From Trichlorobacter lovleyi SZ (GTDB lineage: Bacteria > Desulfobacterota > Desulfuromonadia > Geobacterales > Pseudopelobacteraceae), in assembly GCF_000020385.1 (NCBI RefSeq), contig NC_010814.1, positions 570,001-602,000 of the forward strand: 32,000 bases of DNA, read 5' to 3'. Below are positions 7,309 to 32,000 of the stretch, in pieces. The position numbers and the translations under genes are program-made. Under the pieces are notes generated by a model. It saw nothing but the letters and a program-made list of their open reading frames with translations, ran no database searches and was not told the origin of the DNA. Each line of letters begins with the position of its first letter. Within the stretch, counting starts at the first letter, position 1.

Positions 7309-7323
7309 GCATTCTGCCACAAA

Positions 7324-8104: not shown

Positions 8105-8106
8105 CC

Positions 8107-11282: not shown

Positions 11283-11303
11283 TCAGCACAAGGAGCCCGC
11301 CTG

Positions 11304-12863: not shown

Positions 12864-12865
12864 AC

Positions 12866-13063: not shown

Positions 13064-13892
13064 AGCGGCGGCCGGCCTGTACAGCTTTACGGCCTTTGCC
13101 GTTGGTGGCGATCTTGACCTGAACCGCCTGGCGGTACGGCTGGGGATTGACCGCAAGTACCGCTGGGAAGAACCGATGCGTCTCAATCCGGTCACCTTTA
13201 CGCCATCCGCCGGTAGCGACGCCGTCTGGGTCTACCTTTTTTATTTCGGCGGCATTGTCTTTCTGAACTGCAGCGATGACATTATTGCCCGCTGTATCGA
13301 AGGACTGAAACAGCATCTGGAGCAGCTGAGGGAACAGCCGCAACTTCGCTTCCGGGAAGACTACCGGCTGGAGATCACGCCGGACGGTGAACCGTCCATC
13401 ACCAACGACTGCGCGGTGATGCCGGTCTTTAAACAGGAACTGCTGGAAATTATCTGCTTTGTGATTGCAAAGTCGGTGGCCCTGGAGCGGATTGAAGAGC
13501 ATGTCGACGCCGTCTTTGACGAGGTGGGTGTCATGATCAGCCGCCTGGGGCAGGGGGTGCTGGAGCTGCCGGACAAGCGGCTGGCCAAACTGGCGTCGGT
13601 GGTGCTCGGTTTCAAATACACCTCCATTGCCCATATCATGGTGCTGGACAAACCTGAGAGCACCTGGGACAACGAAGAGGCAGACCGTTTTTACCTGACC
13701 ATCTCCAACCTGTTTGAACTGCGCCCCCGCTATCAGGAGATCAAGCACAAGGCCGAGACCCTGCTGGATGTCACCGATGTCTTCTCCTCCCTCTCCCACG
13801 CCCGCCGCTCCGCCCGCCTGGAGTGGATCATCATCATCCTGATCGCCTTTGAGATCATCATGGCCCTCTGGCAAAAGTTCTGGGGCGGTTGA
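13056..13892 (+). CDS. RMD1 / DUF155 family protein with C-terminal TM helix
   Basis: The overall layout fits bacterial RMD1/Sif2-like DUF155 proteins: YSFTAFAVGG..., FYFGGIVFLN, a conserved central region, and a terminal hydrophobic helix LEWIIIILIAFEIIMALW. At 278 aa the size also fits. Confidence 0.75.
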   Translation: MTEAAAGLYSFTAFAVGGDLDLNRLAVRLGIDRKYRWEEPMRLNPVTFTPSAGSDAVWVYLFYFGGIVFLNCSDDIIARCIEGLKQHLEQLREQPQLRFREDYRLEITPDGEPSITNDCAVMPVFKQELLEIICFVIAKSVALERIEEHVDAVFDEVGVMISRLGQGVLELPDKRLAKLASVVLGFKYTSIAHIMVLDKPESTWDNEEADRFYLTISNLFELRPRYQEIKHKAETLLDVTDVFSSLSHARRSARLEWIIIILIAFEIIMALWQKFWGG

Positions 13893-13940
13893 CGTAGCAG
13901 CGTTGCCTGCTACACTTGGGGCGAACCGGGGAGGTTCGTC

Positions 13941-15362
13941 ATGATGTTGATGGTGCCGGCACAGGTACGGAATGCCAGTCTGCGGATTGTGGCCATTTAT
14001 GCCTTCTTCGGGGCAATGTGGATACTTGTCTCCGATACGGTTGTGGGCTGGCTGGTGAGCGATCCTGCAATCCTGACCAGGGTGGCGCTTTTCAAGGGCT
14101 GGCTGTTTATTCTGCTTACCTCGTTACTCCTCTACAAACTCATCTCTTCTGACAACCAGAAACTGGCAAGGGCAACCGCCCTGCTGCAGGGCAGTGAAGA
14201 ACGCTTTCATACCATCTATGATTCGCTCAACGACGCCATCTTTATCCATGATGCAGAAACGGGCCGTATCCTGGATGTGAACGAGACCGCCTGCCGGCTC
14301 TACGGTTATGGCCGTGAGGAGCTGCTGAACAAGGGACTGCAGCAGTTGGGGACGGGAGAGCCGCCCTATAGCGGGGCAGAGGCCCTGGCCTGGATTCAGC
14401 GCTGCGCCGAAGGCACTCCCCAGACCTTTGAATGGATCACCGCCACAAGATATTCCAGCCGTCTGTGGGTTGAGGTCAGCATGCGTCGCGCAACCCTTGA
14501 CGGTGAAAACCGGATTGTGGTGATGGTGCGGGATATTTCCGAACGCAAGCAGGCTGAAGAGCAGCTCAGTCTGCAGCAGGCGCAACTGGAGGAACTGAAC
14601 CGGACCCTTGAAAGAAGGGTCAATGAGGCGATTGCCGAGCTGCGGCAGAAGGATGAGCTGTTGCTGCAGCAGAGCCGCCATGCCGCCATGGGAGAGATGC
14701 TGAACAATATCGCGCATCAGTGGCGGCAACCGCTTAACAACATTGCAATCTACGTCCAGAGTATGCAGCTGCTGAAGGCCTCTCACGAGCTGACCGACGA
14801 GCAGATTCAGAGCGATGTCCAGAACATCATGGCAATCATCAATTACATGTCGAAGACCATAGATGATTTCCGTACCTTTTTCAGAAACGAAAAACAGAAA
14901 CATCCGTTTTCCGTGTCAGAGGCGGCGGGCAAGGCAATCAGCTTTGTCTCGGCGCAGATGGATCATTACGGCATAAGCTGCCGCCTGGTTGTCCACGATG
15001 AGCTGACGGTTAACGGCTATCAGGCCGAGTATATCCAGGTGGTACTGAACATCCTCAACAACGCCATTGATGCACTGAACCACAGCGGCAGCCGGGATAA
15101 GCGGATTCTGGTCAGCATCAGTGCAGAGCACAACAGGGCGGTCCTGGCGATTCAGGACAACGGCGGCGGGATCCCCCCCGAAGCCTTGCCTCACATCTTT
15201 GAGCCGTACTTTACCACCAAGGGACCGGGGGAAGGAACCGGCATCGGTCTCTACATGGCAAAGAGTATCATTGAGAAGCATATGGCAGGCAGCCTGTCCG
15301 CACGTAACAGGTCCGAAGGGGCCGAATTCCGCATCTGCCTGCCGTCAGCTGACGTCGCCTGA
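13941..15362 (+). CDS. PAS-domain sensor histidine kinase (2 TM, PAS, HisKA-like, HATPase)
   Basis: ATG at 13941, with GGGAGG upstream. The PAS segment is FHTIYDSLNDAIFIHDAETGRILDVNETACRLYGY. The H-box is NNIAHQWRQPLNNI. The ATPase boxes are NILNNAIDAL...DNGGGIP...GTGIGLYMAKSI. Confidence 0.9.
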   Translation: MMLMVPAQVRNASLRIVAIYAFFGAMWILVSDTVVGWLVSDPAILTRVALFKGWLFILLTSLLLYKLISSDNQKLARATALLQGSEERFHTIYDSLNDAIFIHDAETGRILDVNETACRLYGYGREELLNKGLQQLGTGEPPYSGAEALAWIQRCAEGTPQTFEWITATRYSSRLWVEVSMRRATLDGENRIVVMVRDISERKQAEEQLSLQQAQLEELNRTLERRVNEAIAELRQKDELLLQQSRHAAMGEMLNNIAHQWRQPLNNIAIYVQSMQLLKASHELTDEQIQSDVQNIMAIINYMSKTIDDFRTFFRNEKQKHPFSVSEAAGKAISFVSAQMDHYGISCRLVVHDELTVNGYQAEYIQVVLNILNNAIDALNHSGSRDKRILVSISAEHNRAVLAIQDNGGGIPPEALPHIFEPYFTTKGPGEGTGIGLYMAKSIIEKHMAGSLSARNRSEGAEFRICLPSADVA

Positions 15363-15488
15363 ACATCTGCCCGGCCCGCCCTGCCGCTTTCTGAAAATTT
15401 TATAAAGATGTAACCTCACAGCCGCAGAACGGTAAAACCCTTCCCGTATGGTGACCTGTCTCATCACCATAACGCAGGGGGGTATCAC

Positions 15489-18326
15489 ATGTTTTTCGAA
15501 CGTAGGCATCTGAGGACGGTGGCGGCGGTTCTTGCGCTTACCATGGCAAGCAGCCTGACCGGCTGCGGTACGACAGGCTCCAGCACGACACCTGCAACGG
15601 CAGTAAAGAACGTCATTCTGGTGATCGGCGACGGCATGCAGCTGGAACATGAACGGGCAGCCAACAATTACCTGTTCGGCAACTACACGGAAGGGCTTGC
15701 CTTCTGGAAGTTCCCCTACCAGGGGCAGGCATCCACCTGGGATGTCACCACCTACAACAGGTTTGCAACCGCTGCCGGCAAGAGTGTGTGGAGTGCATCC
15801 ACTTCAACCGCAGACGACAGCACAACCTTTGATGCGCTGCTGGGGTATGACCCTGCCAAAGGGGGCAAACAGCCCTGGCCGCTGGACAGCACCGGCGACA
15901 AGACCTACCTGCTGACCGGTGCCACCGACTCCGCCTCAGCCGGCACAGCCCTGGCCACCGGCTACAAGACCGATGACGGCAACGTGGCCTGGAAGACCGG
16001 CGACCCTGAAGACGGGCGCCTGCTGACCATTGCCGAGATGTACCGCTACCAGAAAAAGGCCGCCATCGGTGTGGTTTCCACCGTGCCGTTTACCCACGCC
16101 ACCCCGGCCACCTTTGTCAGCCACAACAAATCACGCAACAACTACAAAGATATCGGCTATGAGATCATCAACTCGGTCAAGCCGGAGGTGGTGATCGGCG
16201 GCGGCCATCCGAACTACACCACCAGCTACATGGATACCCGCGATTACAACATCCTCAAGGCCTCGACCGAGTATGTCCTGGCCGAGCGTCAGACCGGTGT
16301 GGACGGTAACAGCACCATTGCCGCCAAGGCAACCGAGGCAGTCGCCAACAGCAAGAAGCTGTTCGGCCTGTTCGGCAACAGCGGCGGCCAGTTTGATTAT
16401 CCGGTGCCGTCCAACACCCCCGGCACGCCAAGCGTGGTACGGGGTAATATTGAAAACCCCTCCCTGGCCGAGGCCTCCAAGGCCGCCCTCAAGGTGCTCG
16501 CCCAGAACAAGAACGGTTTCTTTCTGATGATTGAGCAGGGGGATATTGACTGGGCCAACCATGCCAACGACTTCAAGAGCATGGTCGGCGGTGTCTATGA
16601 CCTGAACGAGACCGTCAAGGCGATTGAGAGCTATGTTGATCAGCCGGGGGATGACATCGACTGGAACAATACCCTGGTGATCGTTACCTCGGACCACGGC
16701 AACAGCTATATGCGCCTGAACAGCGCCAAGCCGCTGCAAAAGGGTGCACTGCCGCAACAGGACGCCAACAGCACCTCAAACGGCAGCTATACCCCCTCCT
16801 ATGTCTATCCCAACGGCGAAGTAACCTATGGCACCGGCGGACACACCAACGAGCTGGTCCGGGTCTATGCCAAGGGGGGCAAGACCAGCCTGCTGAACAG
16901 TTTTGAAGGGATCTGGTACGCAGGCACCAAAATCATCGACAACACCCAGCTCTACAAGGTGATGATGTCTGCCCTGGGGCTGACCGACCAGAACAAGCAG
17001 AGTTCGCTGCTGGACAAGATCATCGCCATGCTGCCGGACAGCCTGCTCTCGATCCTCAACCCGAAACTGACCACTACCCAGCTGAACAACGCCATTACCA
17101 ACGGCGCCAGGACGGTCACCAAACCCGGTATCGGCTCTGCCCTGGTGCCTGATCCCAAGGCTGCCGGTTACTACTACATGATGACCGACCGTGGTATCAA
17201 CGGTGACTACTCCTATACCGATCCGGTCAGCGGTGTGACCACCGAAGGCAAATATTTCCCGCTGCCCGCCTTTACCCCCACCATTGTCCGGGTCAAGCTT
17301 GACGGCGCCACAATCATCATCGACAAGGTCATTCCGATCGTTGACAAGGACGGTAACTACGTGACCGGTATCCCCAACGACGCCAATGACGGCCTGGCCT
17401 ATGACAGTCCGACAGCGGCGGTGGGCAGTCCCCTGGCCTACAATGAAAACGGCCTGGATACGGAAGATATGCAGGTGCTGCCCAACGGCGATTTCCTGGT
17501 GGTTGATGAACACTCCCCCAGTATCGTGGTGGTGGAAGGAACCACCGGCAAGGTCAAGGTGCGCTACACCCCGGCAGGCAAGAAGCTGACCGGCGCCAAC
17601 TACACGGTCAAGGATATCCTGCCTGTGGTCATGCTGCAGCGCCGTGCCAACCGCGGTTTTGAAAACCTGGCGCTCTCCTCCGACGGCAAGACCGCCTATG
17701 CGGTCATGCAGAGTCCGATGGGCCAGAAGAGCGATCCGAACTACAGCACCGCCTACAAGAACAGCCGGGTGGTGCGGATTGCCAGGCTTGACGTGACTGA
17801 TCCGGTCAATGCAACCGTGACCGGCCATTATGTGGTCATGCAGAGTGCCGTTGCGGACTACGCCAAGAACAGCGCCGGTCTGACCGTCAGCAACAAGCAG
17901 ACCGACATGAAATATTCGGCCGCCTCCTGGCTGGCCAAAGACAAGATCCTGCTGCTGGAGCGTGCCAACGGTAAGGCCAAGGTCTTTGTGGTTGACCTGA
18001 ACTTTGCCACCAACATGCTGGGTAAATCCTATGAAAATACCCTGGGACCTGAAGATATTGCCACCGCAGGCCTGGGGCTGGGCGGGCTGGGGATCGTGCC
18101 GGCCTCGGTCTATGAGGCCTTCTCCACCGACGAACTGCCGGCCCTGACCCTGGATGCGGCAGATGCAACCGGTACGTCACCCAGCTATGAGGTCAAGTTT
18201 GAAGGAATGGCCCTGGTGGGTGATCAGCTTCTGCTGGCCAATGACAACGACTTCGGGATTGCCGATGTTACCCTGCCCACCAAGATCTGGAAGGTCAGCC
18301 TGAAGCGTGCCCTGGGCAGCTTCTGA
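15489..18326 (+). CDS. Lipoprotein: alkaline phosphatase (PhoA family) fused to a C-terminal phytase-like (esterase-like activity of phytase) beta-propeller domain
   Basis: The signal peptide has a lipobox (LALTMASSLTGC). The PhoA motifs are VILVIGDGM, the active-site TDSASAGTALATGYKT, and DWANHAND...TSDHGN. The C-terminal half has NRGFENLALSSDGKTAY and KFEGMALVGDQLLLANDNDFG, typical of the phytase-like family. Confidence 0.88.
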   Translation: MFFERRHLRTVAAVLALTMASSLTGCGTTGSSTTPATAVKNVILVIGDGMQLEHERAANNYLFGNYTEGLAFWKFPYQGQASTWDVTTYNRFATAAGKSVWSASTSTADDSTTFDALLGYDPAKGGKQPWPLDSTGDKTYLLTGATDSASAGTALATGYKTDDGNVAWKTGDPEDGRLLTIAEMYRYQKKAAIGVVSTVPFTHATPATFVSHNKSRNNYKDIGYEIINSVKPEVVIGGGHPNYTTSYMDTRDYNILKASTEYVLAERQTGVDGNSTIAAKATEAVANSKKLFGLFGNSGGQFDYPVPSNTPGTPSVVRGNIENPSLAEASKAALKVLAQNKNGFFLMIEQGDIDWANHANDFKSMVGGVYDLNETVKAIESYVDQPGDDIDWNNTLVIVTSDHGNSYMRLNSAKPLQKGALPQQDANSTSNGSYTPSYVYPNGEVTYGTGGHTNELVRVYAKGGKTSLLNSFEGIWYAGTKIIDNTQLYKVMMSALGLTDQNKQSSLLDKIIAMLPDSLLSILNPKLTTTQLNNAITNGARTVTKPGIGSALVPDPKAAGYYYMMTDRGINGDYSYTDPVSGVTTEGKYFPLPAFTPTIVRVKLDGATIIIDKVIPIVDKDGNYVTGIPNDANDGLAYDSPTAAVGSPLAYNENGLDTEDMQVLPNGDFLVVDEHSPSIVVVEGTTGKVKVRYTPAGKKLTGANYTVKDILPVVMLQRRANRGFENLALSSDGKTAYAVMQSPMGQKSDPNYSTAYKNSRVVRIARLDVTDPVNATVTGHYVVMQSAVADYAKNSAGLTVSNKQTDMKYSAASWLAKDKILLLERANGKAKVFVVDLNFATNMLGKSYENTLGPEDIATAGLGLGGLGIVPASVYEAFSTDELPALTLDAADATGTSPSYEVKFEGMALVGDQLLLANDNDFGIADVTLPTKIWKVSLKRALGSF

Positions 18327-18367
18327 TCCTTTCAGAGCCCTGTAAGGTTGCTGTTTGTAACCAACCT

Positions 18368-18400
18368 GGCACCGGACCGCAACGGTCCGGTGCCTTTTTT
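18368..18400 (+). terminator. Rho-independent terminator after the phosphatase gene
   Basis: GGCACCGGACCG-CAA-CGGTCCGGTGCC forms a perfect 12-bp stem followed by TTTTTT. Confidence 0.9.
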
Positions 18401-18446
18401 GTGGCATATTGGTGCTGTCGGGATCTTATACGAGAGGAGTTTATTC

Positions 18447-18875
18447 ATGAAAAAGGACAAGGTGTTGTTCGTCTGCATCCATAACAGCGCCCGCAGTCAG
18501 ATGGCGGAGGCATTTCTGAATCATCTGGCGGGTGATCGTTTTGAGGCGCGAAGCGCCGGGCTTGAGCCGGGTGTGCTGAATCCGCTGGTGGTTGAGGTGA
18601 TGCAGGAGCTGGGGATTGATATCTCGGCTCATCAGACCAAGGATGTCTTTGAGATGTTCAAACGGGGCGAGATGTACAGTTATGTGATCACGGTCTGCGA
18701 CGGGGCCAGTGCCGAGCGCTGCCCAATCTTTCCCGGGATTGTCAGCCGACTGCACTGGAGCTTCAGTGATCCGGCCGCCCTGCAGGGGACACGTCAGGAT
18801 GTACGTGCAGCAGTACGGGAGATCCGGGATGAGATCAGGACTGCAGTGGAGGGGTTTGTTGCCGAGTATGCGTAA
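18447..18875 (+). CDS. arsC: Arsenate reductase, LMW-PTP / thioredoxin-coupled type
   Basis: I moved the start to the ATG at 18447, with GAGGAG at 18433-18438. The P-loop is [15 protein letters not shown] (CX5R-S). The downstream Cys pair is [12 protein letters not shown], as in pI258-type ArsC. The protein is 142 aa. Confidence 0.85.
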
Positions 18876-22164: not shown

Positions 22165-24174
22165 TTAGGCCGTTTCCACCCGGTTGCGGCCGTTATGTTT
22201 GGCCTGGTAGAGCGCGGTATCGGCGCGTTCGATAAAGACCTCTGCCGGTTCTCCGCAGATGTGCCGGGTAACCCCGAAGCTGCAGGTGAGCCGCAGGCCG
22301 TTGCCGAAGTCATACTGCTCGATCATGTCCCGCAGGATCTCAGCCAGCACCGCAGCCTGGGCTGTGTCGTTTTTGGGGGTCAGGATCACAAACTCTTCGC
22401 CGCCCCAGCGGCTGAAGATGTCGTGGCTCCTGATCCTGCCGGAAATCAGTTCGGCAACCTTCTGCAGCACATGGTCCCCGGCGGCATGCCCCTGGGTGTC
22501 GTTGATCTGCTTGAAGTGATCGAGATCCAGCATGATCAGCGACAAGGGAGAGTTATAGCGGCAGGCACGGGCGGTCTCGGCCACCAGCAGACCGTCAAAC
22601 ATCCGGCGGTTGTAAATGCCGGTCAGAAAATCGATCCGGGCCTCGGTTGCCAGCAGTTCGTTGGCATGTTTCAATTCCTGCTGGGCCCGGCGGCTGTCGA
22701 TGATCTCCCAGGTCACGTCAGCCAGGTAGGCGACCTCTTCGGCATCTCTGGTGGTGTAATTATTGCCCTTGTTGCCCACCCCCAGCACCGCCACAATCCG
22801 TTCATCCCGGATCACCGGTACCACCAGCTCCCGGATGACCGGCGCATGGCCGGGGGGCAGTCCCTTTTTGTTGGGCAGAGCGGCATAGTCGTTGTGAATT
22901 GCCGGGGCGCGGGTCTGGACGCACTCGGCCCAGACACCGGCCTGGTCAACGCCGTAGTGCATGCCGTGTCCTTCAGCCTTGCAGAACTCCTGCAGGGTGC
23001 GGGTGGACCAGGCCTGCAGGGTCAGGGCCTGCTGGTCCGGGTCAACAAAGTGATAGAATCCCACCGGGCTGTCACTGATCCGGCAAACCTCATCCAGGGC
23101 GTACTGCAGCAGTTCATCAACAGTATGCATGGTGGCATATTCCAGCAGCTGGTAGCGGATCTGTACCATCGCCTCTGCCCGTTGGGCCTTCTGCTCAAAC
23201 AACGCCTGACGCCGGTGCAGCAGGGACAGAGCGGCTGAACTGCCGATGCAGGTCATTAGAAACAGCAGCCCCTGGAAGATCGCCTCATTCTTCCAGTTCT
23301 TCATGATTGCGTCCGGGTTGCGGCTGATGATCACCACCAGCGGTTTGTCCATCTGCAGTTCTTTTGGCTGCAGGGTCAAGAGGGCCACCTTGCGGTATTC
23401 GCCGGTGGCATAGGCGGTGTCGGTAAAGATATTTTCCGGTTGGCCGCTCTCTTTGTGGCGGGTAAACAGGGAACCGGGTACGGCCAGGTTTTTGCCGGCC
23501 TGCCCTTCACGGTACGGCATGGTCATGAAACGGATGCCATCACCGTGGTTGATGGTGTTCCACATATCCGGGGCATAGAGGGTTGACTGCAGGATCACCT
23601 CGAAGTAGTCGGGGTCGACCCCGGCGGTGACAATCCCGGCAAAACGGCCATCCGGTCCGGGTATCATTCTGGTAATGTCGAAAACATAGGCGTTCAGCAC
23701 CGATTTGAAGGGGGGCGAGATGTAGAGCGTATCGGGATTGGGGTGCTGCTGCGGCTCACTGAAATACTGCCGGCCGGCAACATTGCGTCCGATCAGTTCC
23801 GGGCGGTTGGCAGCCAGAATGTTTCCCTTGGTATCAGTAAAAAACAGGGTGCGTATACCGGGCATGGCATCGGCCAGCACACTCAGGCGCTTGTTGGCCT
23901 GGGCCAGGTTTTGGGAGCCCTGCAATCCGGGCAGATCGCTGATCACCCCTTTCAGGGCCCGGCTGGTTGCTTCAAGCTGACGCTGGATATTCTGACCGAT
24001 TACCCTGGCCTGGGTCATCAGCCGCTGGTTTTCCTGGCTGATGGTCCGATGGCGCATGGTGGCCAGGTTGTAGGCGATGATACTGCCGATCAGGGCCAGG
24101 GCGACGATCAGCGCAAGCCAGTGCTGGCCGGTTCGTTGGCTGAGCTGCCTATCCACGCTGCTGCCCGGCGTCAT
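22165..24174 (-). CDS. Diguanylate cyclase: TM-Cache-TM-GAF-GGDEF (active GGEEF, RxxD I-site)
   Basis: The Cache-like periplasmic region includes TDTKGNILAANRPELIGRNVAGRQYF. The GAF region includes VVPVIRDERIVAVLGVGNK. The A-site is RWGGEEF, and RSHD lies 5 residues upstream as the I-site. I chose the ATG at 24172-24174, which forms an ATGA overlap with the upstream stop. The track start at 24189 is a GTG. Confidence 0.9.
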   Translation of the reverse strand: MTPGSSVDRQLSQRTGQHWLALIVALALIGSIIAYNLATMRHRTISQENQRLMTQARVIGQNIQRQLEATSRALKGVISDLPGLQGSQNLAQANKRLSVLADAMPGIRTLFFTDTKGNILAANRPELIGRNVAGRQYFSEPQQHPNPDTLYISPPFKSVLNAYVFDITRMIPGPDGRFAGIVTAGVDPDYFEVILQSTLYAPDMWNTINHGDGIRFMTMPYREGQAGKNLAVPGSLFTRHKESGQPENIFTDTAYATGEYRKVALLTLQPKELQMDKPLVVIISRNPDAIMKNWKNEAIFQGLLFLMTCIGSSAALSLLHRRQALFEQKAQRAEAMVQIRYQLLEYATMHTVDELLQYALDEVCRISDSPVGFYHFVDPDQQALTLQAWSTRTLQEFCKAEGHGMHYGVDQAGVWAECVQTRAPAIHNDYAALPNKKGLPPGHAPVIRELVVPVIRDERIVAVLGVGNKGNNYTTRDAEEVAYLADVTWEIIDSRRAQQELKHANELLATEARIDFLTGIYNRRMFDGLLVAETARACRYNSPLSLIMLDLDHFKQINDTQGHAAGDHVLQKVAELISGRIRSHDIFSRWGGEEFVILTPKNDTAQAAVLAEILRDMIEQYDFGNGLRLTCSFGVTRHICGEPAEVFIERADTALYQAKHNGRNRVETA

Positions 24175-25640
24175 GCAAAACCGATGCACTGGTTAACGGT
24201 CCGCTGCGACTGGCTGCCCTGCAGCAACCCTTCGCACTCGATCACCAGTTGTTCCATGGTCTGATGCCGGTTGTTCAGTGCTACGCCGCCGACGCTGACG
24301 GTGCAGGCCAACTCCCCTTCAGCCGTCGTAATCCTGATCTGTGCCGCTTTCTCCCGGATCCGCTCGGCAACCAGCAGGGCGTCGGCAAGCGCGGATTCAG
24401 CCAGCAGAATGCCGAAGGAGTCCTTGCCGGTCCGGCCGATCAGGTCGGTGGTCCGTAGCGATGCGCGGCAGAGGGCCGCCAGTTGCTGCATGAACTGGTT
24501 GCCGGCCGGGTAGCCGAACTGATCGTTAATCTCCTTGAACTGATCGATATCCACGATCAGAAGGGTCATGGCACGGCCGTAGCGCTGTGCCGCCGTGATG
24601 TCGCGGTTCCCCAGTTCAAGCAGTATCTTGCGGTTGTAGAGGCCGGTGACCCGGTCGCTGACGGCATAGGCGTAGATCTCCTCCTCCAGCAGCTTCTGGC
24701 GGGAGATATCCTCGATCACCGCCACATAACGGGAGATGCCGTTGTGATGATTACGGATCGGTGCAATGAGGAGGTGCTGCCAGTAGTAGTCGCCGTTTTT
24801 CTTGCGGTTGTACAGCTCACCGCTCCAGGCATAGCCGCGGCTGATGGTGCTCCAGAGGTTCTGATACACCTCGGGCGGGGTCTGACCCGACTTGAGGATG
24901 CGGGGATTGGCGCCGATCAGTTCCTCGGCGGTATAGCCGGTCAGCTCTTCCACCCGTTCGCTGACATATTCAATCGTGCCCCGGGTATCGGTAACCAGAA
25001 TCAGGTTGGGTGACTGATTCATGGCGGCAAAGAAGCGGGCGACCTGGATCTCCTTGTGCATGCGGGGCGAGAGATCCTGGGCCAGGAACACCAGATAGGC
25101 GGTCTTCTCCTGTTTCACCAGGGTCATGTGGGCCTGGATCCAGCGTTCCCGTTTGTTGACGGTCAGCGTAATGTCACGGCAGACTTCCCGTCCCGTCTCA
25201 ATCGCCTCATCGGCCATGGCAAGCAGGCCTGAATCCTGCCACCAGTCCAGCTGCCGGAAATTACCGCTGCAGCAGTTCCAGCTGGCGCACCCTGTCAGGC
25301 GGGTCATGGCCGTATTCTTATGGATACATTCACCGCTGGTACGGAAGGTGGCAATGGCCACGCCGTTCATCTGGTTGATCGGGTGCAGGCTGAACGCCTC
25401 GTCGCCGCCGCCTGACTTGAGCTGGTTCAGCCTGAAGTTGTTCAGGAAACGGTAGCTCCTGTCGGCCTTGTCAAAGTAGATCGGATAGCCGGCGGCCTGG
25501 AGATGGTTCAGGTAGCGGTAGATGGTGCGCACCCCGACATGGAAATCCCCGGCCAGCAGCTCCGGCGTCAGCTTTTCCCCGGTATCCAGTCTTTTTAATA
25601 TGGCGGTCAGTGCATCGATCTTGTTGCTGTATTTGTACAT
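24171..25640 (-). CDS. HTH (YafY/DeoR-like HTH_11)-PAS-PAS-GGDEF protein with degenerate A-site (GKDSF) and intact I-site (RTTD)
   Basis: The N-terminal HTH is LTPELLAGDFHVGVRTIYRYLNHLQAAGYPI. The PAS segment is NLILVTDTRGTIEYVSERVEELTGY. The GGDEF domain reads LRTTDLIGRTGKDSFGILL, so GG(D/E)EF is replaced by GKDSF while RxxD is kept 5 residues upstream. Confidence 0.85.
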   Translation of the reverse strand: MYKYSNKIDALTAILKRLDTGEKLTPELLAGDFHVGVRTIYRYLNHLQAAGYPIYFDKADRSYRFLNNFRLNQLKSGGGDEAFSLHPINQMNGVAIATFRTSGECIHKNTAMTRLTGCASWNCCSGNFRQLDWWQDSGLLAMADEAIETGREVCRDITLTVNKRERWIQAHMTLVKQEKTAYLVFLAQDLSPRMHKEIQVARFFAAMNQSPNLILVTDTRGTIEYVSERVEELTGYTAEELIGANPRILKSGQTPPEVYQNLWSTISRGYAWSGELYNRKKNGDYYWQHLLIAPIRNHHNGISRYVAVIEDISRQKLLEEEIYAYAVSDRVTGLYNRKILLELGNRDITAAQRYGRAMTLLIVDIDQFKEINDQFGYPAGNQFMQQLAALCRASLRTTDLIGRTGKDSFGILLAESALADALLVAERIREKAAQIRITTAEGELACTVSVGGVALNNRHQTMEQLVIECEGLLQGSQSQRTVNQCIGFA

Positions 25641-25672: not shown

Positions 25673-25701
25673 TTGACAGGTCTGAAGCAAAACAGGATAT
25701 T
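25673..25701 (+). promoter_or_regulatory. Sigma70-like promoter candidate for the 25.9-32 kb operon
   Basis: TTGACA (25673-25678), a 17-bp spacer, then GATATT (25696-25701), all in the only AT-rich stretch of this part of the window. This placement implies a 5' leader of about 190-215 nt. Confidence 0.4.
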
Positions 25702-25760: not shown

Positions 25761-25778
25761 GTGACAGATGTCTGTCAC
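25761..25778. promoter_or_regulatory. Perfect 8-2-8 palindrome (operator candidate) in the divergent intergenic region
   Basis: GTGACAGA-TG-TCTGTCAC. It lies about 120 bp upstream of the HTH-GGDEF gene start and about 145-160 bp upstream of the orphan-operon start. A minus-strand TATATT (25745-25750) sits 11 bp away. Confidence 0.4.
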
Positions 25779-25923
25779 TTTAAAAAGGCGTACAAAAAAA
25801 CATATCAATGTCCGTGAAGATACTCCTCCAAATGTAACCTGATTGTTACCGTGCCCCAGCAGTTCTGACATACAGAAGGCGTACGATCCACTCATGTCAT
25901 TCGTCAGGCTGCATGAGGTCACA

Positions 25924-28374
25924 ATGCCGGAATTGCCGAGCCCTCGCCATAGAACCACTTCCGGAGAACCGGGGCAGGAACCGGCCAGACTCCGCCTGGC
26001 CCTGACGCTGGCCGGTGTCTGTCTGGAACGCCCGGAAACCATCGCTACCTCGCTCCCGTTTTCAGTGGGGGATGTGACTGCCGGGGCTGAAAGCGAGCTG
26101 CAGGCGGTGGTGGCCGGAGACAGGCGGCAGGTTGATCTGCCGTTGATCATTGAGCAGTCCAACTACTTTGCCAATATGATGAAACGGGCCGCATCGGGCG
26201 AGACCTCCCGGCGGGCAGTGGCTGATCTGGAACGGTTTCTGGCGGACAACAGCAGCAATGTCTGGGAAAACAGTTGGGTCCGCTTTCCGCTCAAGCGACT
26301 TTCGGCCTATGCCCGTCAAGTGCTGGAACGTGATCTGCTGGCAGACAAGAACAACCCGGCAACAGGGCAGCGGGCCGATGCGGCACGCTTCTTCTTCCAT
26401 GCTGCAGATGGCACGGTCATGCTGCGCCTGCCGATCAGTTACCTGATCAAGCTGGCCCTGGCCGACCTGGTCGGCTCGCAGCAGATCCTGCCGGACCTGA
26501 TCCGGCAGACCGGTATCCGCCTGCTGGGGCATTACCTGAACGACAACACCTCGCCTGAAACATTCTCTTTCAATGTAGTCTCTCTGACCCCCCGGAACGG
26601 CATGGGGGCGGCCATTGCCCGGGAGACCGCCATCCGTTTTCTGATGACCCAGCTGTTGATTCTGTACGCCAATCAGGCCTTTGGTATCACCGAGCACGGC
26701 CAGCAGGCCATGGCCTACTTTGCCCCCCATCCGCCGGTACGTCAAAAAGAGCTGAACGACCATATCCCGGACAGCTTCTACCGTGAGCTGTTCATGAGCC
26801 CCTGTCTTTCCGGCTGGGACAAGGGGGAAGACAAGTTCCGCTACATGCAGCTCTGCCACCAGGTCCTGTCCCGCAGCCAGCTCAACGCCGTGGCCAAGCT
26901 GAAGGATGCCGGGATTATCCTGAACAATCTGGTGGTGCTGCCCAATGTTTCCAATGTCAGTCTGGCCAACAACGGCACCCATATCAGCATCGGCAGCCGC
27001 AGGCTGACTGCCGCCCTGCAGGACAGCGGATCAGGCTTCAAGGCAGCCCACGAAAAGCTGCTGGGTGATCTGACCATCAAGATCAGTGAACATTTTCTGC
27101 CGCTGTTCGTCGGTTCCTACACCGCTGCACCGTTCCGGCTGGCCTACAGTGATTTTCACCCTGAAAAGGCGCTGGGGTTCCTGCCCCATGAGCTGGATTA
27201 CACCCATCTGCGGATGCTCTGGCGACGCTGGCGCAAGAAGGCGGATATCTCCATTTTCGGACAGTCGGTCACGCCGTTCGGACCCCCGGCCCTGGATTCC
27301 TTTATCAGCCGCGCCTTTGGCCTGAAAGGCGATTTTGTACCGGATTACCGTCTGGTGGATTACCTGGTCTGCCTGCTTTCAACCGATCGCAGCCCGGCCC
27401 TGAACGGCCAGCCCGGCAACACCGACCTGCTGCGGCGTGACCTGGCTGATATGGGGGTCTTTGATGAGCAGATGTCGGTCTACCTGCTCTACAAACAGCG
27501 TGAATATGCCAAAATGGGGTTTTCAGGGTTTGAAGGGCGTCACTACAGCCTGTTCCAGACCTTTCAAGGGGACATGGGCCGGGCGGCCGACCTGCAGACC
27601 CTGATCACGGCCCTGGCCTACAAGTATATGGCAGAAGGGGTAGATCACCGGAGCATACCGGATGATCCGTCTTTGGAGAGTGAACGGCGGCAGATCTTCT
27701 TTGCCACTGCCATTGGTCTGCCCACCTTCTTTGTTCGCAAGGATACGGCCAACAGCTTCCTGCACCGGATCATCACCAGAACCCAGGGAGTGCGCCCCAG
27801 TAAACGGTATCCCGGTTACCTGCGGGTCCAGATCCATGAATACCGGCTGGCACTGCTGCGTGTCCTGCGGGAGGATGCGCCCGACCTGATCGAACAGATG
27901 GGGCTGCATGATACGATTGCCGACCTTGCACAGCGGATCAGGGAACCGGAACAGTATGCAGCCGGCGGACGTCTGACCGGCGGCATCCTGGCCCATCTGG
28001 GCAGCAGCTCCGCCTTGAAAACCGAGGCCCGTGATTTTAACACCGGTGCAGAAGAGTACTATCGTATTACCCTGCGCCGACAACAGACTGCTGAGGCCTT
28101 TGACCTGTTGCAGAGTGAATGCTGCACACTTGATCAACAGGCTGCAGAGCTGGATGAACCGCTGCGTAAGGCGTTGCTGCTGATTCTGCAGGGACAGAGC
28201 GCTGATCAGTTTCTGGCTGCGGTCAGGCAGGATATCCTGCAGGAGCAGGCCGATATCCCGACCCTGCAGCGTCTGATGAACCTGCTGCTGGTAAAGGTGC
28301 ATCATGATCAGCAACAGACCATGACCGGAAGGAGTGAACCGGATGCTGCAGCACCAGTATATCGAGCGGGATAG
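25924..28374 (+). CDS. Large conserved-looking hypothetical protein (about 816 aa), soluble, no recognisable domain
   Basis: The long ORF has GC and codon character like its neighbours. The track start at 25843 is a TTG. I prefer the ATG at 25924, which has GAGG 5 nt upstream; an ATG at 25894 is an alternative. The gene's 3' end is overlapped by the next gene. No TM segments and no motif I can assign with confidence. Confidence 0.8.
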   Translation: MPELPSPRHRTTSGEPGQEPARLRLALTLAGVCLERPETIATSLPFSVGDVTAGAESELQAVVAGDRRQVDLPLIIEQSNYFANMMKRAASGETSRRAVADLERFLADNSSNVWENSWVRFPLKRLSAYARQVLERDLLADKNNPATGQRADAARFFFHAADGTVMLRLPISYLIKLALADLVGSQQILPDLIRQTGIRLLGHYLNDNTSPETFSFNVVSLTPRNGMGAAIARETAIRFLMTQLLILYANQAFGITEHGQQAMAYFAPHPPVRQKELNDHIPDSFYRELFMSPCLSGWDKGEDKFRYMQLCHQVLSRSQLNAVAKLKDAGIILNNLVVLPNVSNVSLANNGTHISIGSRRLTAALQDSGSGFKAAHEKLLGDLTIKISEHFLPLFVGSYTAAPFRLAYSDFHPEKALGFLPHELDYTHLRMLWRRWRKKADISIFGQSVTPFGPPALDSFISRAFGLKGDFVPDYRLVDYLVCLLSTDRSPALNGQPGNTDLLRRDLADMGVFDEQMSVYLLYKQREYAKMGFSGFEGRHYSLFQTFQGDMGRAADLQTLITALAYKYMAEGVDHRSIPDDPSLESERRQIFFATAIGLPTFFVRKDTANSFLHRIITRTQGVRPSKRYPGYLRVQIHEYRLALLRVLREDAPDLIEQMGLHDTIADLAQRIREPEQYAAGGRLTGGILAHLGSSSALKTEARDFNTGAEEYYRITLRRQQTAEAFDLLQSECCTLDQQAAELDEPLRKALLLILQGQSADQFLAAVRQDILQEQADIPTLQRLMNLLLVKVHHDQQQTMTGRSEPDAAAPVYRAG

Positions 28375-29332
28375 CGGTGCAGTCGTAACCGAACAGCTGC
28401 TGGGTGACCGGATGGTGCAGCTGCTCTACCATCAGGTCAGGGAAAACAGCAGCGGACTGTTTCGACTCTTGACCAGCAGCTGGTCATCACAGCTGCTGGG
28501 GGCGGTCAATTTTGATCGTCCCCTGCTGAACCGGCAGGGCTTTGCAGCCCGCTGCGGCATTGATCTGGAAGAATGCCTTGATCCACCGCACACGCTGGAT
28601 ACGGCCCGCAAGGTCTTTGAACGCAGGATCAGGTATGAACAGTGCCGCCCGCTGCCGGATGAGCCGGCTGCAGTGGTCTCGCCGGCCGATGCCCGGGTGA
28701 TCGTCGGTTCGCTGCAGGAGACGGACCTGTTCTTTCTGAAAGACAAGTTTTTCAGCTTTGAAGAGCTGATCGGGCCTGAACGCAGCTTCTGGCGTCATCG
28801 TTTTGCAAACGGTGATTTTGCCCTGTTTCGCCTGACCCCTGACAAGTATCACTACAACCATACCCCGGTGGCGGGCAAGGTGGTTGACTTCTACAGCATT
28901 GACGGTGCCTACCACTGCTGCAACCCTGCCGCCGTGGTCAGTATGGTCACCCCCTATTCCAAGAACAAGCGGGTGGTGACCCTGATCGATACCGATGTTG
29001 CAGGGGGCAGCCGGGTCGGGCTGGTGGCGATGGTGGAGGTGGTGGCCCTGATGATCGGCGATATCGTGCAGGCCTACAGCGACCAGGGCTACGATGACCC
29101 CCGTCAGGTCAGGGTCGGCATGTTTCTGAAAAAAGGACAGCCCAAGAGCCTCTACCGCCCCGGCAGCAGCACCGATATCCTGTTTTTTCAGCCCGGCAGG
29201 GTCCGCTTTGCCGCAGACCTGCTGGAGAATCAGCTGCGTAGCGGGGTAGTCAGCCGCTTTACGCAGGGGTTTGAAAAACCGCTGGTGGAGACCGACATCA
29301 AAGTGCGGTCGTTGCTGGCACTGAATAACTGA
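28343..29332 (+). CDS. Phosphatidylserine decarboxylase family (pyruvoyl-dependent) protein
   Basis: The PSD core is FRLTPDKYHYNHTPVAGKV, and the self-cleavage-type motif is YRPGSSTDILFF (G-S-S/T). I chose the ATG at 28343, with GGAAGGAG at 28327-28334. The track start at 28334 is a GTG. The gene overlaps its upstream neighbour by 32 nt. Confidence 0.85.
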   Translation: MLQHQYIERDSGAVVTEQLLGDRMVQLLYHQVRENSSGLFRLLTSSWSSQLLGAVNFDRPLLNRQGFAARCGIDLEECLDPPHTLDTARKVFERRIRYEQCRPLPDEPAAVVSPADARVIVGSLQETDLFFLKDKFFSFEELIGPERSFWRHRFANGDFALFRLTPDKYHYNHTPVAGKVVDFYSIDGAYHCCNPAAVVSMVTPYSKNKRVVTLIDTDVAGGSRVGLVAMVEVVALMIGDIVQAYSDQGYDDPRQVRVGMFLKKGQPKSLYRPGSSTDILFFQPGRVRFAADLLENQLRSGVVSRFTQGFEKPLVETDIKVRSLLALNN

Positions 29333-29341
29333 CAGGGTGAC

Positions 29342-31801
29342 ATGATCATGAAGACCTATAAAGCAGACCTGCATGTTCATTCCAGCTATTCCAACAAGCC
29401 TACCTACTGGGCCATGCGTAAATTCAACTGTCCGGAGAGCTACACCTCGCCCCGGCAGCTCTATCAGACTGCCCTGGCGCGGGGGATGCACTATGTCACC
29501 ATCACCGACCACAACGCCATCGGGGGAGCGCTGGAGATCGCCCATCTGCCCAATACCTTCATCAGCGCCGAGATTACCACCCATTTTCCGGAGAACGGCT
29601 GCAAGGCCCATCTGGTGGTGCTGCATATCTCCGAGGCCCAGTATGCTGAGATCATGGTGCTGCGTAAAAATGTCTACGAGCTGGTCGCTTACCTCAATCA
29701 GGAACGGATCGCCCACTTTCTGGCCCATCCGCTCTATGCCCAGAACGACAAGCTGACCATCGAGATTATCGAAAAGAGTTTGCTGCTCTTCACTACCTTT
29801 GAGGTGCAGAACGGCTGCCGGGCCCGCCGCTTTAACGATGTTACCGCCCGGCTGGCCGGTGCGTTGACTCCGGCCATTGTTGAACGTCTGGCGGAACAGC
29901 ACCGGATCACTCCGACAGGACCCACCCCCTGGCAGAAGGGGATGGTGGGCGGCTCCGATGACCACGGCGGCCTGTTCATTGCCCGGGCCCACACCTGCAG
30001 CCACCGGGGCGAGGATCTTGACGCCTTTCTTGACGCTGTCAGGCAGGGTAGTACCTGGGCGGAAGGGGAGCATGGCGGGCCGTTGACCATGGCCCACAGC
30101 CTCTATGGTGTGGCCCACAGCTTCTACCGCGAACGCTTCGGTGAGCGCAGGCGGAGCGCCACTCCATTTGTCAGCGCCCTGCTGGACCGTTTTTTCAATC
30201 TGGGCACGGACAAAGGCTCCTTTGTGGAAAAGATCAGGCTGTTCGTACTGAAAAACCTGCCGGAAAAACGTTCGAGCAGAGAACTTGGCTTTGAGGAGCT
30301 GCTGGACAGCGAGGCCCGGCAACTGCTTAATGATGCCCCCTTTCTGGAAGGGCTGAAAGGGGCCGACCTGAACCGGAAGATCTTCATGGTCACCAGCCGG
30401 TTGGCAAACCGGATTCTGTATCAGTACACCAACCGCTTCATGTCACTTTCGATGCAGGCAGGTTTTTTCGATTATCTCAACACGGCAGGCACCATCGGCC
30501 TGGTGCATCTGCTGATCTCTCCCTACTACCTGGCCTTTCACCACCAGCATAAAGGCAAGGAACTGATTCGCGAGATAGCGGAGCGGCTGCCGGAGATCCC
30601 GTTTTCGCCTGCAGAGGAGAAGATCGCCCTGTTTACCGACACCCTGGATGAGATCAACGGCGTGGCCATGACGATCCGGCGTCTGATCAGGACCGCCCAG
30701 GAACGGGGCATCAGCCTGACCGTGATCACCTCTGGCGATGACAGTCAGGCCGCACCCGCAGGGGTGAAACAGTTCCAGGCGGTGGGCGACTTTGTGCTGC
30801 CGGAATATCCTGAACTGAAACTGAGTTTTCCGCCTATTCTGGATGTGCTGAACTACATCGAGAAGGAAGGGATTACCCGCATCCATATCAGCACCCCCGG
30901 CACGGTCGGTCTGCTGGGGCTGCTGATAGCCCGGCTGATGAACATTCCGGTGGCCGGTACCTACCACACCGACATCCCGCAGTATGTCCGCAGCCTTACC
31001 AATGATGAATTTCTGGAGCAGGCGGCCTGGAGCTATATGATCTGGTTCTACAACCAGATGGAAGAGGTGCTGGTTCCTTCCAGCGGTACGCGGGAACAGT
31101 TGCTCTCCCACGGTCTGCCGCCGGAGAAGATGAAGCCGCTGCCGCGCTGGGTCGATACGGAACAGTTTTCGCCTGACAAACGGGTTGAGCGTTTCTGGCT
31201 TGAGCGTGGCCTCAGCGGCAGGATCACCCTGCTCTATGTGGGGCGGGTCTCACGGGAAAAGGGGCTGGATCTGCTGGTTGAGAGCTTTTGCAGGCTGATT
31301 GATGAAGGTGCGGAGCTCTGTCTGTCAGTGGTTGGCGACGGCCCCTACCGCGGGGAGATGGAGCAGGCCCTTGCCGGGTATCCGGTGTTGTTTACCGGCT
31401 ACCTGCAGGGTGAAGAGCTGCAGCAGGCCTATGCCTCGGCAGACCTGTTTGTTTTCCCCAGCGCCACCGATACCTTCGGCAACGTGGTGCTGGAGGCCCA
31501 GGCATCAGGGCTGCCGGTGATCGTATCTGATGCCGGGGGGCCCTGTGAATTGATGATTGGCGGCGAGACCGGCATGGTGTTCAGCGCCGGTAGCCAGGAT
31601 GAACTGACCGGCGCGATCCGCAGTATGACCGCCAATCGCCTGATGCTTTCCCTGATGGGAGAGAGCGCCCGGAGCTTTGCGCTGGCAAAGGCGCCACACG
31701 CATCAGATACCTACAGTACCATCCTGCAGCCCGGCCCCAGGCCGGATGCCGGTTATTCCACGTTTGGGGAGAGCCCATGTCTGCAGTCCTGTTCCTGCTG
31801 A
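29342..31801 (+). CDS. Fusion protein: N-terminal PHP-family phosphoesterase + C-terminal GT4 (group 1) glycosyltransferase
   Basis: The PHP metal-ligand motifs are DLHVHSSYS, ITDHN, AHLVVLH, LAHPL and GGSDDHGG. The GT4 part has KIALFTDTLDEINGVA, EKGLDLLVE and an EX7E-type FPSATDTFGNVVLEAQASGLPVIVSDAGGPCE. The gene starts 9 nt after the PSD-like stop. Confidence 0.9.
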   Translation: MIMKTYKADLHVHSSYSNKPTYWAMRKFNCPESYTSPRQLYQTALARGMHYVTITDHNAIGGALEIAHLPNTFISAEITTHFPENGCKAHLVVLHISEAQYAEIMVLRKNVYELVAYLNQERIAHFLAHPLYAQNDKLTIEIIEKSLLLFTTFEVQNGCRARRFNDVTARLAGALTPAIVERLAEQHRITPTGPTPWQKGMVGGSDDHGGLFIARAHTCSHRGEDLDAFLDAVRQGSTWAEGEHGGPLTMAHSLYGVAHSFYRERFGERRRSATPFVSALLDRFFNLGTDKGSFVEKIRLFVLKNLPEKRSSRELGFEELLDSEARQLLNDAPFLEGLKGADLNRKIFMVTSRLANRILYQYTNRFMSLSMQAGFFDYLNTAGTIGLVHLLISPYYLAFHHQHKGKELIREIAERLPEIPFSPAEEKIALFTDTLDEINGVAMTIRRLIRTAQERGISLTVITSGDDSQAAPAGVKQFQAVGDFVLPEYPELKLSFPPILDVLNYIEKEGITRIHISTPGTVGLLGLLIARLMNIPVAGTYHTDIPQYVRSLTNDEFLEQAAWSYMIWFYNQMEEVLVPSSGTREQLLSHGLPPEKMKPLPRWVDTEQFSPDKRVERFWLERGLSGRITLLYVGRVSREKGLDLLVESFCRLIDEGAELCLSVVGDGPYRGEMEQALAGYPVLFTGYLQGEELQQAYASADLFVFPSATDTFGNVVLEAQASGLPVIVSDAGGPCELMIGGETGMVFSAGSQDELTGAIRSMTANRLMLSLMGESARSFALAKAPHASDTYSTILQPGPRPDAGYSTFGESPCLQSCSC

Positions 31802-32000
31802 TCGCAACATTCCTGCTTGCTGCCTACCTCTGGTGGGGCTTCCGCTTTTTACCGGCTGAACGCTGGCAGATCTTTGCAACCGTGCCGGGGCGTAAAAACG
31901 GGCCGGGAAGCTGGCAGGGAATCAACTTTACCTGGTACGGTCTTTTGACCGCCAACGCCTATCTGGTGGCGGTTGCCGTGCTGCTGGTGCTGCTGGGGTC
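31777..32000 (+). CDS. Integral membrane protein, probably Lgt (prolipoprotein diacylglyceryl transferase) family; 5' partial, continues past the window
   Basis: My own translation from the ATG at 31777 (GGGGAGAG upstream) is MSAVLFLLIATFLLAAYLWWGFRFLPAERWQIFATVPGRKNGPGSWQGINFTWYGLLTANAYLVAVAVLLVLLG, with no stop before the window end. INFTWYGLL resembles the Lgt N-terminal HWYGLMY motif. The gene overlaps its upstream neighbour by 25 nt. Confidence 0.55.
   Translation, partial: MSAVLFLLIATFLLAAYLWWGFRFLPAERWQIFATVPGRKNGPGSWQGINFTWYGLLTANAYLVAVAVLLVLLG

Follow-up and report, generated by a model that had tools for sequence, protein, structure and literature searches.

When phosphate is scarce, a major microbial response is the replacement of phospholipids by phosphorus-free lipids, and this response is followed in sediments and aquifers through lipid biomarkers. 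To our knowledge, the known routes to such lipids (PlcP-Agt, BtaAB, OlsBA/OlsF and Sqd) leave unexplained the sulfur-containing aminolipids described in 2024 from a sulfate reducer. Here we consider a tightly packed operon (genes g1 to g5) that begins near the 3' end of a 32,000-nucleotide stretch of Trichlorobacter lovleyi SZ (NC_010814.1, positions 570,001 to 602,000; the whole stretch is called the window below). Its conserved core is a trio of genes, g1, g2 and g4, which encode a candidate amide-forming ligase, a relative of phosphatidylserine decarboxylase (PSD) and a candidate membrane transferase related to Lgt, and which are likely to make up a phosphate-linked pathway for a membrane-lipid head group.

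The closest described lipids come from Desulfatibacillum alkenivorans, in which phosphate limitation leads to the almost complete replacement of phosphatidylethanolamine (PE), phosphatidylglycerol (PG) and cardiolipin (CL) by glucuronic acid (GlcA) lipids and BACys (Ding et al. 2024, PMC11181052). BACys, or 'N-butyramide cysteine glycerols', are new sulfur-containing aminolipids that are produced only under phosphate limitation and have the usual diacyl, acyl/ether or diether glycerol cores (PMC11181052). Their head-group ion is C7H13O3N2S+ at m/z 205.064, read by the authors from tandem mass spectra (MS2) as an intact cysteine plus a C4 amide, and the main text on BACys names no genes (PMC11181052). 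The closest described enzyme for attaching such a head group through sulfur is Lgt. In its E. coli structure, the C3-O bond of PG is activated at a centre made up of R143, R239, E243 and R246, the lipobox peptide is proposed to bind at the HGGL motif, and the active site faces the periplasm (Mao et al., PMC4728403).

Conservation and phosphate-gene context of the trio

Gene neighbourhoods were compared in 59 genome loci with g1 relatives, together with the contigs of the most distant relatives found in an exhaustive search. The second gene directly follows g1 in 60 of the 61 evaluable loci, g4 lies no more than 6 kb downstream of g2 in 56 of 59, and the three genes are contiguous and co-directional from 100% down to 36% g1 identity. 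Even the most distant relatives (36-41% g1 identity; loci L070-L074) have the complete trio, and so do Nitrospirales (L076), Desulfarculus (L077) and Acidiferrobacterales (L078). Sources named for the g1 family are Geobacterales, Desulfobacterales, Desulfobulbaceae, Syntrophorhabdaceae, Gammaproteobacteria, Nitrospirales and Acidobacteriota, the contig from the last of these stopping right after g1. The family is compact: all named members are annotated 'hypothetical protein', and none of its 758 representatives carries a Pfam domain.

The first-pass annotation, made from the letters of the window, had described a four-gene operon and had taken the tight packing of its genes as a sign of shared function. 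The shared function is borne out for g1, g2 and g4 by synteny down to 36% identity, but not for g3, and in related genomes only the trio, rather than all four genes, co-occurs stably. The third gene was detected in 24 loci. T. lovleyi and its closest relatives have it between g2 and g4; in all, seven loci have it downstream on the same strand and 14 have it upstream and divergent, and it is missing from the fetched flank in most of the others. As its position varies between genomes, g3 appears to be a separable, mobile accessory module. Contigs of other samples with identical g1-g3 proteins also carry a further gene, g5 (319 aa), 6 nt after g4 and past the window end, and the operon thus has five genes and not four. 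The g5 protein scores 207 bits against TIGR04442 (cut-off 150), matching only positions 331-607 of the 608 in the profile; it is nearly restricted to the Trichlorobacter clade, with weaker matches in two other loci, and is a clade-specific accessory gene. The conserved functional unit is g1-g2-g4, with g3 and g5 as movable modules.

The strongest clue to function is the phosphate-homeostasis neighbourhood, which the first-pass annotation had not seen. In the window, a block rich in phosphate genes lies outside the operon (Table 1), and upstream of its PhoU_div/PHO4 genes, at 5540-5600, there are Pho-box-like direct repeats with 11-bp phasing (CTGTAAC-acaa-CTGAAAC, CTGTCAC-atac-CTGTAAC and TTGTCAT-gat-CTGTCAG) that look like the PhoB site of a Pit-type phosphate transporter; the bare motif CTGTCAC is found in the window at chance level. 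The Nitrospirales trio is flanked by genes for two PhoX proteins, GDPD, Ppx, a phytase-like protein, an inositol phosphatase and CYTH-CHAD, while in Acidiferrobacterales the genes after the trio encode a histidine phosphatase, Ppx, PPK, PhoU, PstB and PstA. Genes for secreted phytase-like and Exo_endo_phos proteins lie near the trio in L070 and L074. Across the fetched loci, PPK (17), Ppx (12), PstB (7) and a PhoB-like regulator (7) were found within 10 kb of the trio, and the loci with phosphate genes include distant ones from Desulfobacterium, Desulfobacula and a 'delta proteobacterium'. Upstream of g1 in the window there is a weak Pho-box-like direct repeat (Table 1), similar elements recur in L014 and L017, and good Pho boxes are present in L015 and L023.

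Candidate enzymes of the trio and the accessory module

The g1 product, called an orphan in the first-pass annotation, is one at the level of sequence: it matched no Pfam or NCBIfam model (those for GCL, GCS2 and GS included) and nothing in the PDB by sequence (phmmer) or by profile, and hhalign against E. coli GshA gave E 0.6, with no detectable sequence similarity. Structure comparison, on the other hand, makes a glutamate-cysteine ligase (GCL) fold recognisable. The AlphaFold model (mean pLDDT 91, pTM 0.92) was compared with the PDB by Foldseek, and the nine best matches were all GshF or GshA, led by GshF 3ln7 (E 8.9e-4, probability 1.0). Matches to GshA of Francisella and E. coli (3nzt, 1v4g, 2d32, 1va6) had probabilities of 0.75-0.97 and TMt of 0.39-0.45, and yeast GCL, PafA (probability 0.72) and glutamine synthetases (GS) ranked after them. 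An alignment of 42 family members contains many invariant charged residues and is enzyme-like in this respect. Of these residues, H353 and E537/R539 never vary and E56/E58 hardly do; all five lie on predicted beta strands, in an E-x-E / H / E-x-R arrangement that resembles the metal and ATP ligand pattern of GS and GshA. No transmembrane segment is predicted. We conclude from the model that g1 is a putative ATP-dependent carboxylate-amine ligase of the GCL/GS fold, and glutamate and cysteine are proposed as its substrates. A protein with this fold would supply the amide-forming step that the gene set had seemed to lack.

The assignment of g2 to the PSD family agrees with Pfam (PF02666, 2.6e-39, 135.4 bits against a gathering threshold of 22, residues 90-294). 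The protein stays below all NCBIfam equivalog cut-offs for Psd (135.4 against 371 for NF001941 and 78 against 111.75 for TIGR00163), and it matches E. coli PSD 7cnw at 2.4e-11 and the PsiD-like decarboxylase 9jer at 3.4e-5. Its motifs comprise D116, the His-x-x-His pair H170/H173 and a self-cleavage site, G274-S275-S276-T277; the PAD and YHxxH segments were aligned to 7cnw, while the Gly-Ser site falls outside that alignment and was placed by motif. On these grounds g2 is a PSD-family paralogue, not a canonical phosphatidylserine decarboxylase, and a candidate pyruvoyl enzyme, for which we propose decarboxylation of the head group at its free alpha-amino-acid end.

Lgt likeness of g4 had been read from the part of the gene inside the window, a fragment of 74 residues that is too short to demonstrate it with Pfam. 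The full-length gene does so: it was obtained from contig L004, on which the g1-g3 proteins and the first 74 residues of g4 are identical to those of the window, and it matches PF01790 at 4.7e-10 (39.6 bits against 24.9), with residues 49-292 covering positions 9-239 of 240 in the profile. It fails the NCBIfam Lgt equivalog (17.3 bits against 334), and no PDB match was found by sequence or with a profile of 15 sequences. Motif conservation was assessed in 15 orthologues. The WYG motif, the GG of HGGL, the signature GEGLGRLACISFGCCYGK, W-R-x3-E-x2-R and the equivalent of Lgt Y26 are all kept. The signature sits on the E. coli Lgt signature GLGAGRLGNFINGELWGR so that R165 equals R143 and G176 equals G154, with C168 in place of N146 and C173 in place of E151, and GGAVFVG aligns with GGMSFHG, H103 becoming V120. 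R165 is invariant, as is R257-E261-R264, whose spacing is identical to that of Lgt R239-E243-R246. These equivalences rest on motif spacing, as hhalign against E. coli Lgt gave weak support (E 0.15), yet it aligned the signature motif. The protein is a multi-pass membrane protein with an extra N-terminal transmembrane helix relative to Lgt. Retention of the PG-activating residues with loss of the HGGL histidine is what would be expected if the acceptor is not a lipoprotein, and we propose g4 as a divergent Lgt-family transferase, a putative PG:thiol diradylglyceryl transferase. Three invariant cysteines of g4 (168, 173 and 174) lie in the signature GRLACISFGCCYG, two of them at the positions of N146 and E151; metal binding, disulfide formation and thiol chemistry are possibilities.

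For g3, the first-pass annotation had named a PHP phosphoesterase fused to a GT4 glycosyltransferase. Pfam supports the GT4 lobes (PF13439 with PF00534/PF13692; 1.1e-26, 1.1e-30 and 7.8e-33), while PHP itself, matched over motifs I-II only, is sub-threshold (PF02811, 18.3 bits against 26.4), and a profile of this region found no PDB entry. Residues 1-430 were modelled with AlphaFold using database homologues. The model (pLDDT 87.6) confirms a predicted PHP fold for the N-terminal domain: its ten best Foldseek matches are all PHP phosphoesterases, led by RNase AM 7ug9 at 3.6e-8 and including TM0559 with TMt 0.63-0.66, and D9, H11, H13, D56, H57, H90, H129, E154, D206 and H208, the metal-ligand set, are invariant. 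Homologues of residues 1-430 occur in many phyla, mostly fused to GT4 and some annotated as PHP or PHP-associated. The best NCBIfam match of g3 is to GlcNAc-PG synthase (115 against 480).

Shorter relatives of g3 (581-603 aa), with Pfam matches to the GT4 N-lobe only, are found precisely between ppk and ppx, with phoB/phoR-like genes next in line, in two unrelated genomes (Table 1), and the link of these relatives to polyphosphate genes is conserved across the two. In one of them (L080, 14356-15794), an acyltransferase and a FeeM-family N-acyltransferase, OlsA/OlsB-like proteins of the ornithine lipid type, are encoded beside PhoU and a low-molecular-weight (LMW) phosphatase; by sequence, this pair looks like a second phosphorus-free-lipid module in a Pho neighbourhood. 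A role of the operon in anti-phage defence, raised by a match to PF20706 (GT4-conflict), was rejected, as g1-g5 and a 735-aa neighbour had no PADLOC match and the context is metabolic.

The proposed pathway and its alternatives

The elements of BACys can be derived from two amino acids. Glutamate plus cysteine, less water and carbon dioxide, gives C7H14N2O3S (206.0725), with an ion C7H13N2O3S+ at 205.0641, which is the composition of the BACys head group. Such a head group is what one would expect from the action of a ligase, a decarboxylase and an S-diacylglyceryl transferase. In the pathway that we propose, g1 would join glutamate to cysteine by an ATP-dependent amide bond in the cytoplasm, giving gamma-Glu-Cys. 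The g4 protein would then transfer the diradylglyceryl group from PG to the thiol of the cysteine, giving a thioether lipid and glycerol phosphate; with PG as the donor, release of glycerol phosphate means that lipid phosphorus would be recovered. Lastly, g2 would remove the alpha-carboxyl group from the free amino-acid end to leave a zwitterionic 4-aminobutanoyl-cysteine head group, although the g4 and g2 steps could come in either order. A pyruvoyl decarboxylase requires a free alpha-amino acid, which in gamma-Glu-Cys points to the glutamyl end and hence to 4-aminobutanoyl-cysteine, and the reading of the spectra as intact cysteine plus a C4 amide likewise favours decarboxylation on the glutamate side over gamma-Glu-cysteamine. 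The final products would be BACys lipids, free of phosphorus and containing sulfur. The g3 protein would form a second, separable module for glycolipid synthesis, perhaps by removing the head group of a phospholipid and glycosylating the remainder; by analogy with PlcP-Agt it probably makes an accompanying glycolipid, and its GT4 domain would explain the GlcA lipids induced together with BACys.

The first-pass annotation had suggested that the genes build a decarboxylated amino-acid-type head group on a lipid with Lgt-like chemistry. Synteny and intact catalytic motifs favour this idea, and it is its four-gene unit that has to be given up. It also knew of no described pathway with this gene set, in keeping with the literature that we searched: no published description of g1-g2-g4 was found there, nor was the set described in the literature on TIGR04442, on Lgt paralogues or on the Pho regulon with PSD or Lgt. 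That g1-g2-g4 form a phosphate-linked membrane-lipid head-group pathway is held here with good confidence. Whether their product is BACys specifically we judge an even call, as the substrates, the order of the steps and the connection of the trio with BACys are all matters that we infer. The recruitment of an Lgt-family enzyme from protein lipidation to thioether BACys synthesis on gamma-Glu-Cys, together with a GCL-fold ligase and a PSD-family decarboxylase, is offered more tentatively, as a little less than an even prospect.

Several points weigh against BACys synthesis by the trio. We know of no report of T. lovleyi as a BACys producer, and names obtained for ten g1 cluster representatives included only Syntrophorhabdaceae and Thermodesulfobacteriota, with no Desulfatibacillum. 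The fold match of g1 is remote (best E 8.9e-4, TM 0.3-0.45) and comes without sequence similarity to GshA, so that the substrates are guesses. As g4 lacks H103, N146 and E151 of Lgt, its chemistry may differ, and there is a conflict of topology, since the Lgt active site is periplasmic while g1 and g2 look cytoplasmic. A Pho-box scan upstream of g1 orthologues was inconsistent, most having no box; for this reason the phosphate link rests on the neighbourhood, and direct control by PhoB is not claimed. Moreover, many of the neighbours (ppk, ppx, CHAD) belong with polyphosphate and are not classic starvation genes, which makes a storage role possible. Finally, the BACys structure is itself tentative, being read from MS2 only (PMC11181052), and its link to glycerol may be something other than a thioether.

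Synteny and phosphate context would fit equally well a lipid head-group pathway with another product or order. In this case g4 would put diacylglycerol on free cysteine or serine to give a phosphorus-free analogue of phosphatidylserine, g2 would convert it to the cysteamine or ethanolamine analogue, and g1 would add glutamate or another acid, ending in a gamma-Glu-cysteamine isomer or an unrelated head group. The known substrate of PSD, the homologue of g2, has a serine-type head group, the formula of gamma-Glu-cysteamine is also C7H14N2O3S, and the TRAP transporter encoded after the trio in some lineages could import a different acid substrate. We nevertheless regard this route as unlikely, if worth keeping in view, because it is Glu-Cys ligases in particular that come closest to g1 in structure, and the published reading of intact cysteine plus a C4 amide fits the gamma-aminobutyryl-cysteine (GABA-Cys) isomer better (PMC11181052). 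A function outside membrane lipids, either in polyphosphate or phosphate storage or in making a soluble low-molecular-weight thiol or amine, with some other membrane function for g4, is improbable. It would account for ppk, ppx and CHAD as the commonest neighbours and for the g3 relatives wedged between ppk and ppx, and both the soluble thiols usually made by GCL-fold enzymes and the presence in the PSD family of PsiD, with its soluble substrate, are in its favour; it leaves aside the Lgt-family membrane protein with PG-activating arginines that accompanies g1-g2 in 56/59 loci, and the Zn phospholipase-C-like protein of about 26 Geobacteraceae-type loci.

Protein S-diacylglycerylation is the only known reaction of Lgt (PMC4728403), and PafA is among the fold matches of g1 (probability 0.72), so the trio might be pictured as a specialised lipoprotein pathway in which g4 lipidates a dedicated protein or peptide, g1 ligates protein as PafA does and g2 provides the lipid or modifies it. 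We consider this highly improbable, given that the histidine of HGGL, at the proposed lipobox-peptide site, is replaced in g4, that GshA and GshF match g1 far better than PafA does, and that no small substrate gene recurs among the called genes beside the trio (small open reading frames were not specifically searched). Scarcely credible is a chance packing of ordinary psd, lgt and glycosyltransferase paralogues with no function in common. Only the lack of stable linkage of g3 and g5 speaks for it. Against it stand the contiguity and shared direction of g1-g2-g4 over the whole range from 100% to 36% identity, in lineages named as members of several phyla, the start/stop overlaps and ribosome-binding sites, and the scores of g2 and g4, which fall short of the equivalog cut-offs for the housekeeping enzymes.

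If BACys synthesis by g1-g2-g4 is correct, an orphan lipid class would gain genes, and its producers could be mapped in genomes and metagenomes; the family already spans Geobacter relatives used in bioremediation, Nitrospirales and Acidiferrobacterales. A head group of tentative structure would gain a biosynthetic rationale as 4-aminobutanoyl-cysteine linked through sulfur. Three known enzyme families would gain new reaction types, most notably an Lgt-family enzyme acting on a small molecule. A thioether class of phosphorus-free lipids would be encoded in Desulfobacterota, Nitrospirales and Gammaproteobacteria, with g1 relatives named from Acidobacteriota as well.

Features of the locus and relation to known systems

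The coordinates of the operon and of the features around it are collected in Table 1. The open reading frames are on the plus strand, and the 32-nt overlap of g1 and g2, the 9-nt gap between g2 and g3 as called and the 25-nt overlap of g3 and g4 agree with what the first-pass annotation gave. Orthologues of g3 begin with MKTYK, which corresponds to the ATG at 29348 in the window; this is probably the true start, and the g2/g3 gap is then probably 15 nt. Shine-Dalgarno-like sequences precede g2 (GGAAGGAG) and g4 (GGGGAGAG), and terminator-like sites within the operon occur at chance level only. A sigma-70-like promoter candidate lies about 220 nt upstream of g1. The palindrome between this candidate and g1 is kept as GTGACAGGTGTCTGTCAC in L009-L011 (T. 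thiogenes and related metagenome-assembled genomes, MAGs) and, from its sequence, is possibly the operator of some regulator; the Pho half-site sequence occurs in it, though inverted and not as a direct repeat. The divergent gene, noted earlier as a c-di-GMP-type regulator, does encode a PAS-GGDEF protein, and its position beside g1 is conserved in the Trichlorobacter clade only.

Table 1. Positions of the operon genes, of regulatory candidates and neighbouring genes, and of short g3 relatives in other genomes (window coordinates unless a contig is named)
Feature	Position	Strand	Remarks
g1	25924..28374	+	816 aa, cytoplasmic protein
g2	28343..29332	+	329 aa, PSD-family paralogue
g3	29342..31801	+	819 aa; PHP (1-245), helical region (247-415), GT4 (438-777)
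g4	31777..32000	+	5' 74 codons only in window; full gene 350 aa, L004 15854-16906
Sigma-70-like promoter candidate	25673..25701	+	TTGACA-17-GATATT; consensus match 10/12 only (L004 9750-9778)
Palindrome	25761..25778		GTGACAG-atgt-CTGTCAC; perfect; between promoter candidate and g1
Weak Pho-box-like direct repeat	25832..25849	+	ATGTAAC-ctga-TTGTTAC; score 11.5, shuffle p ~0.05
PAS-GGDEF protein	24171..25640	-	489 aa; divergent from g1; context only
Phosphate-homeostasis-rich block	5638..18875	+	Context, outside operon
PhoU_div and PHO4	5638-7246	+	
OmpR-type regulator and PAS kinase	7292-9852	+	PhoB/PhoR-like pair
CHAD	10404-11282	+	
Ppx/GppA	11304-12863	+	
Alkaline-phosphatase/phytase-like protein	15489-18326	+	945 aa
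LMW phosphatase	18348-18875	+	
Short g3 relative	L079 8001-9746		7.7-Mb genome; homology to g3 1-430
Short g3 relative	L080 8001-9812		Thermoanaerobaculia MAG; homology to g3 1-430

Other genes recur beside the trio. In Geobacteraceae clusters, a DUF2062 membrane protein is encoded near it in 33 loci and a Zn-dependent phospholipase-C-like protein in about 26, both of which T. lovleyi lacks, and a DUF3108/DUF6134-like protein is also found there (e.g. L028 14430-15917 and 9024-9758). A protein of 735 aa, unmatched in Pfam, NCBIfam and PADLOC, is encoded between g2 and g3 in T. thiogenes-type loci (L010 13403-15610) and near the trio in 18 loci. Kinship of g1 with this neighbour or with g5 was rejected, as comparison showed no relationship. 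In the g1 relatives of greatest distance and in Nitrospirales, a gene for a TAtT-type TPR protein comes after the trio, in some cases together with TRAP transporter genes (DctP, DctQM), as in L070 12281-16119, L074 5081-8900 and L076 13527-14270; the products may carry a substrate or the released glycerol phosphate. Directly 3' of the operon, after g5, lies a gene for a HigA-family antitoxin, with a small open reading frame on the opposite strand (L004 18227-18747). Elsewhere in the window, an open reading frame of 484 aa on the minus strand (777-2231), for which Pfam gave no match, runs over the 3' part of the region of the glutamyl-tRNA synthetase gene; it may not be a real gene or may have a miscalled start.

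Set beside known enzymes, each member of the trio has a familiar core and a departure from it. With GshA and the N-domain of GshF, g1 shares the predicted fold, found also in PafA and glutamine synthetase, and its E-x-E/H/E-x-R pattern on beta strands may correspond to their metal and ATP ligands, but it carries about 300 extra C-terminal residues, mostly helical, and forms a separate sequence family. Psd and PsiD have in common with g2 the fold signature, the catalytic Asp, His-x-x-His and the Gly-Ser site of pyruvoyl cleavage, while g2 falls far below the equivalog cut-offs of Psd and archaetidylserine decarboxylase and has an N-terminal extension of about 70 aa; its proposed substrate is the glutamyl end of a thioether lipid (or a Cys/Ser lipid) and not phosphatidylserine. 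E. coli Lgt (PDB 5AZB/5AZC) and g4 share WYG, the GG of HGGL, the G-R-L...G signature and the R239-E243-R246 spacing. They differ in V for H103, C for N146 and E151, the extra transmembrane helix of g4 and its linkage to a ligase and a decarboxylase, and the acceptor of Lgt is a lipobox protein, whereas that proposed for g4 is a small thiol.

Among phosphorus-free lipid systems, BtaA/BtaB, which make diacylglyceryl-trimethylhomoserine (DGTS), likewise place a zwitterionic head group derived from an amino acid on diacylglycerol under Pho control. Their chemistry differs, consisting of S-adenosylmethionine-dependent alkylation of diacylglycerol followed by methylation, with an ether rather than a thioether link, and they have no homology to g1, g2 or g4. 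PlcP-Agt of SAR11, Sinorhizobium and Agrobacterium, which makes glucuronosyl- and glucosyl-diacylglycerol under phosphate starvation, resembles g3 in pairing a phosphoesterase with a GT4 glycosyltransferase and in its linkage to phosphate genes; PlcP is calcineurin-like, however, while the phosphoesterase of g3 is a PHP domain fused to GT4. BACys of D. alkenivorans is a lipid class and not a gene family, carried on the same diradylglycerol cores as PG and PE, and its common ground with the operon of T. lovleyi consists of phosphate limitation, the Desulfobacterota and a head-group formula equal to that of decarboxylated Glu-Cys.

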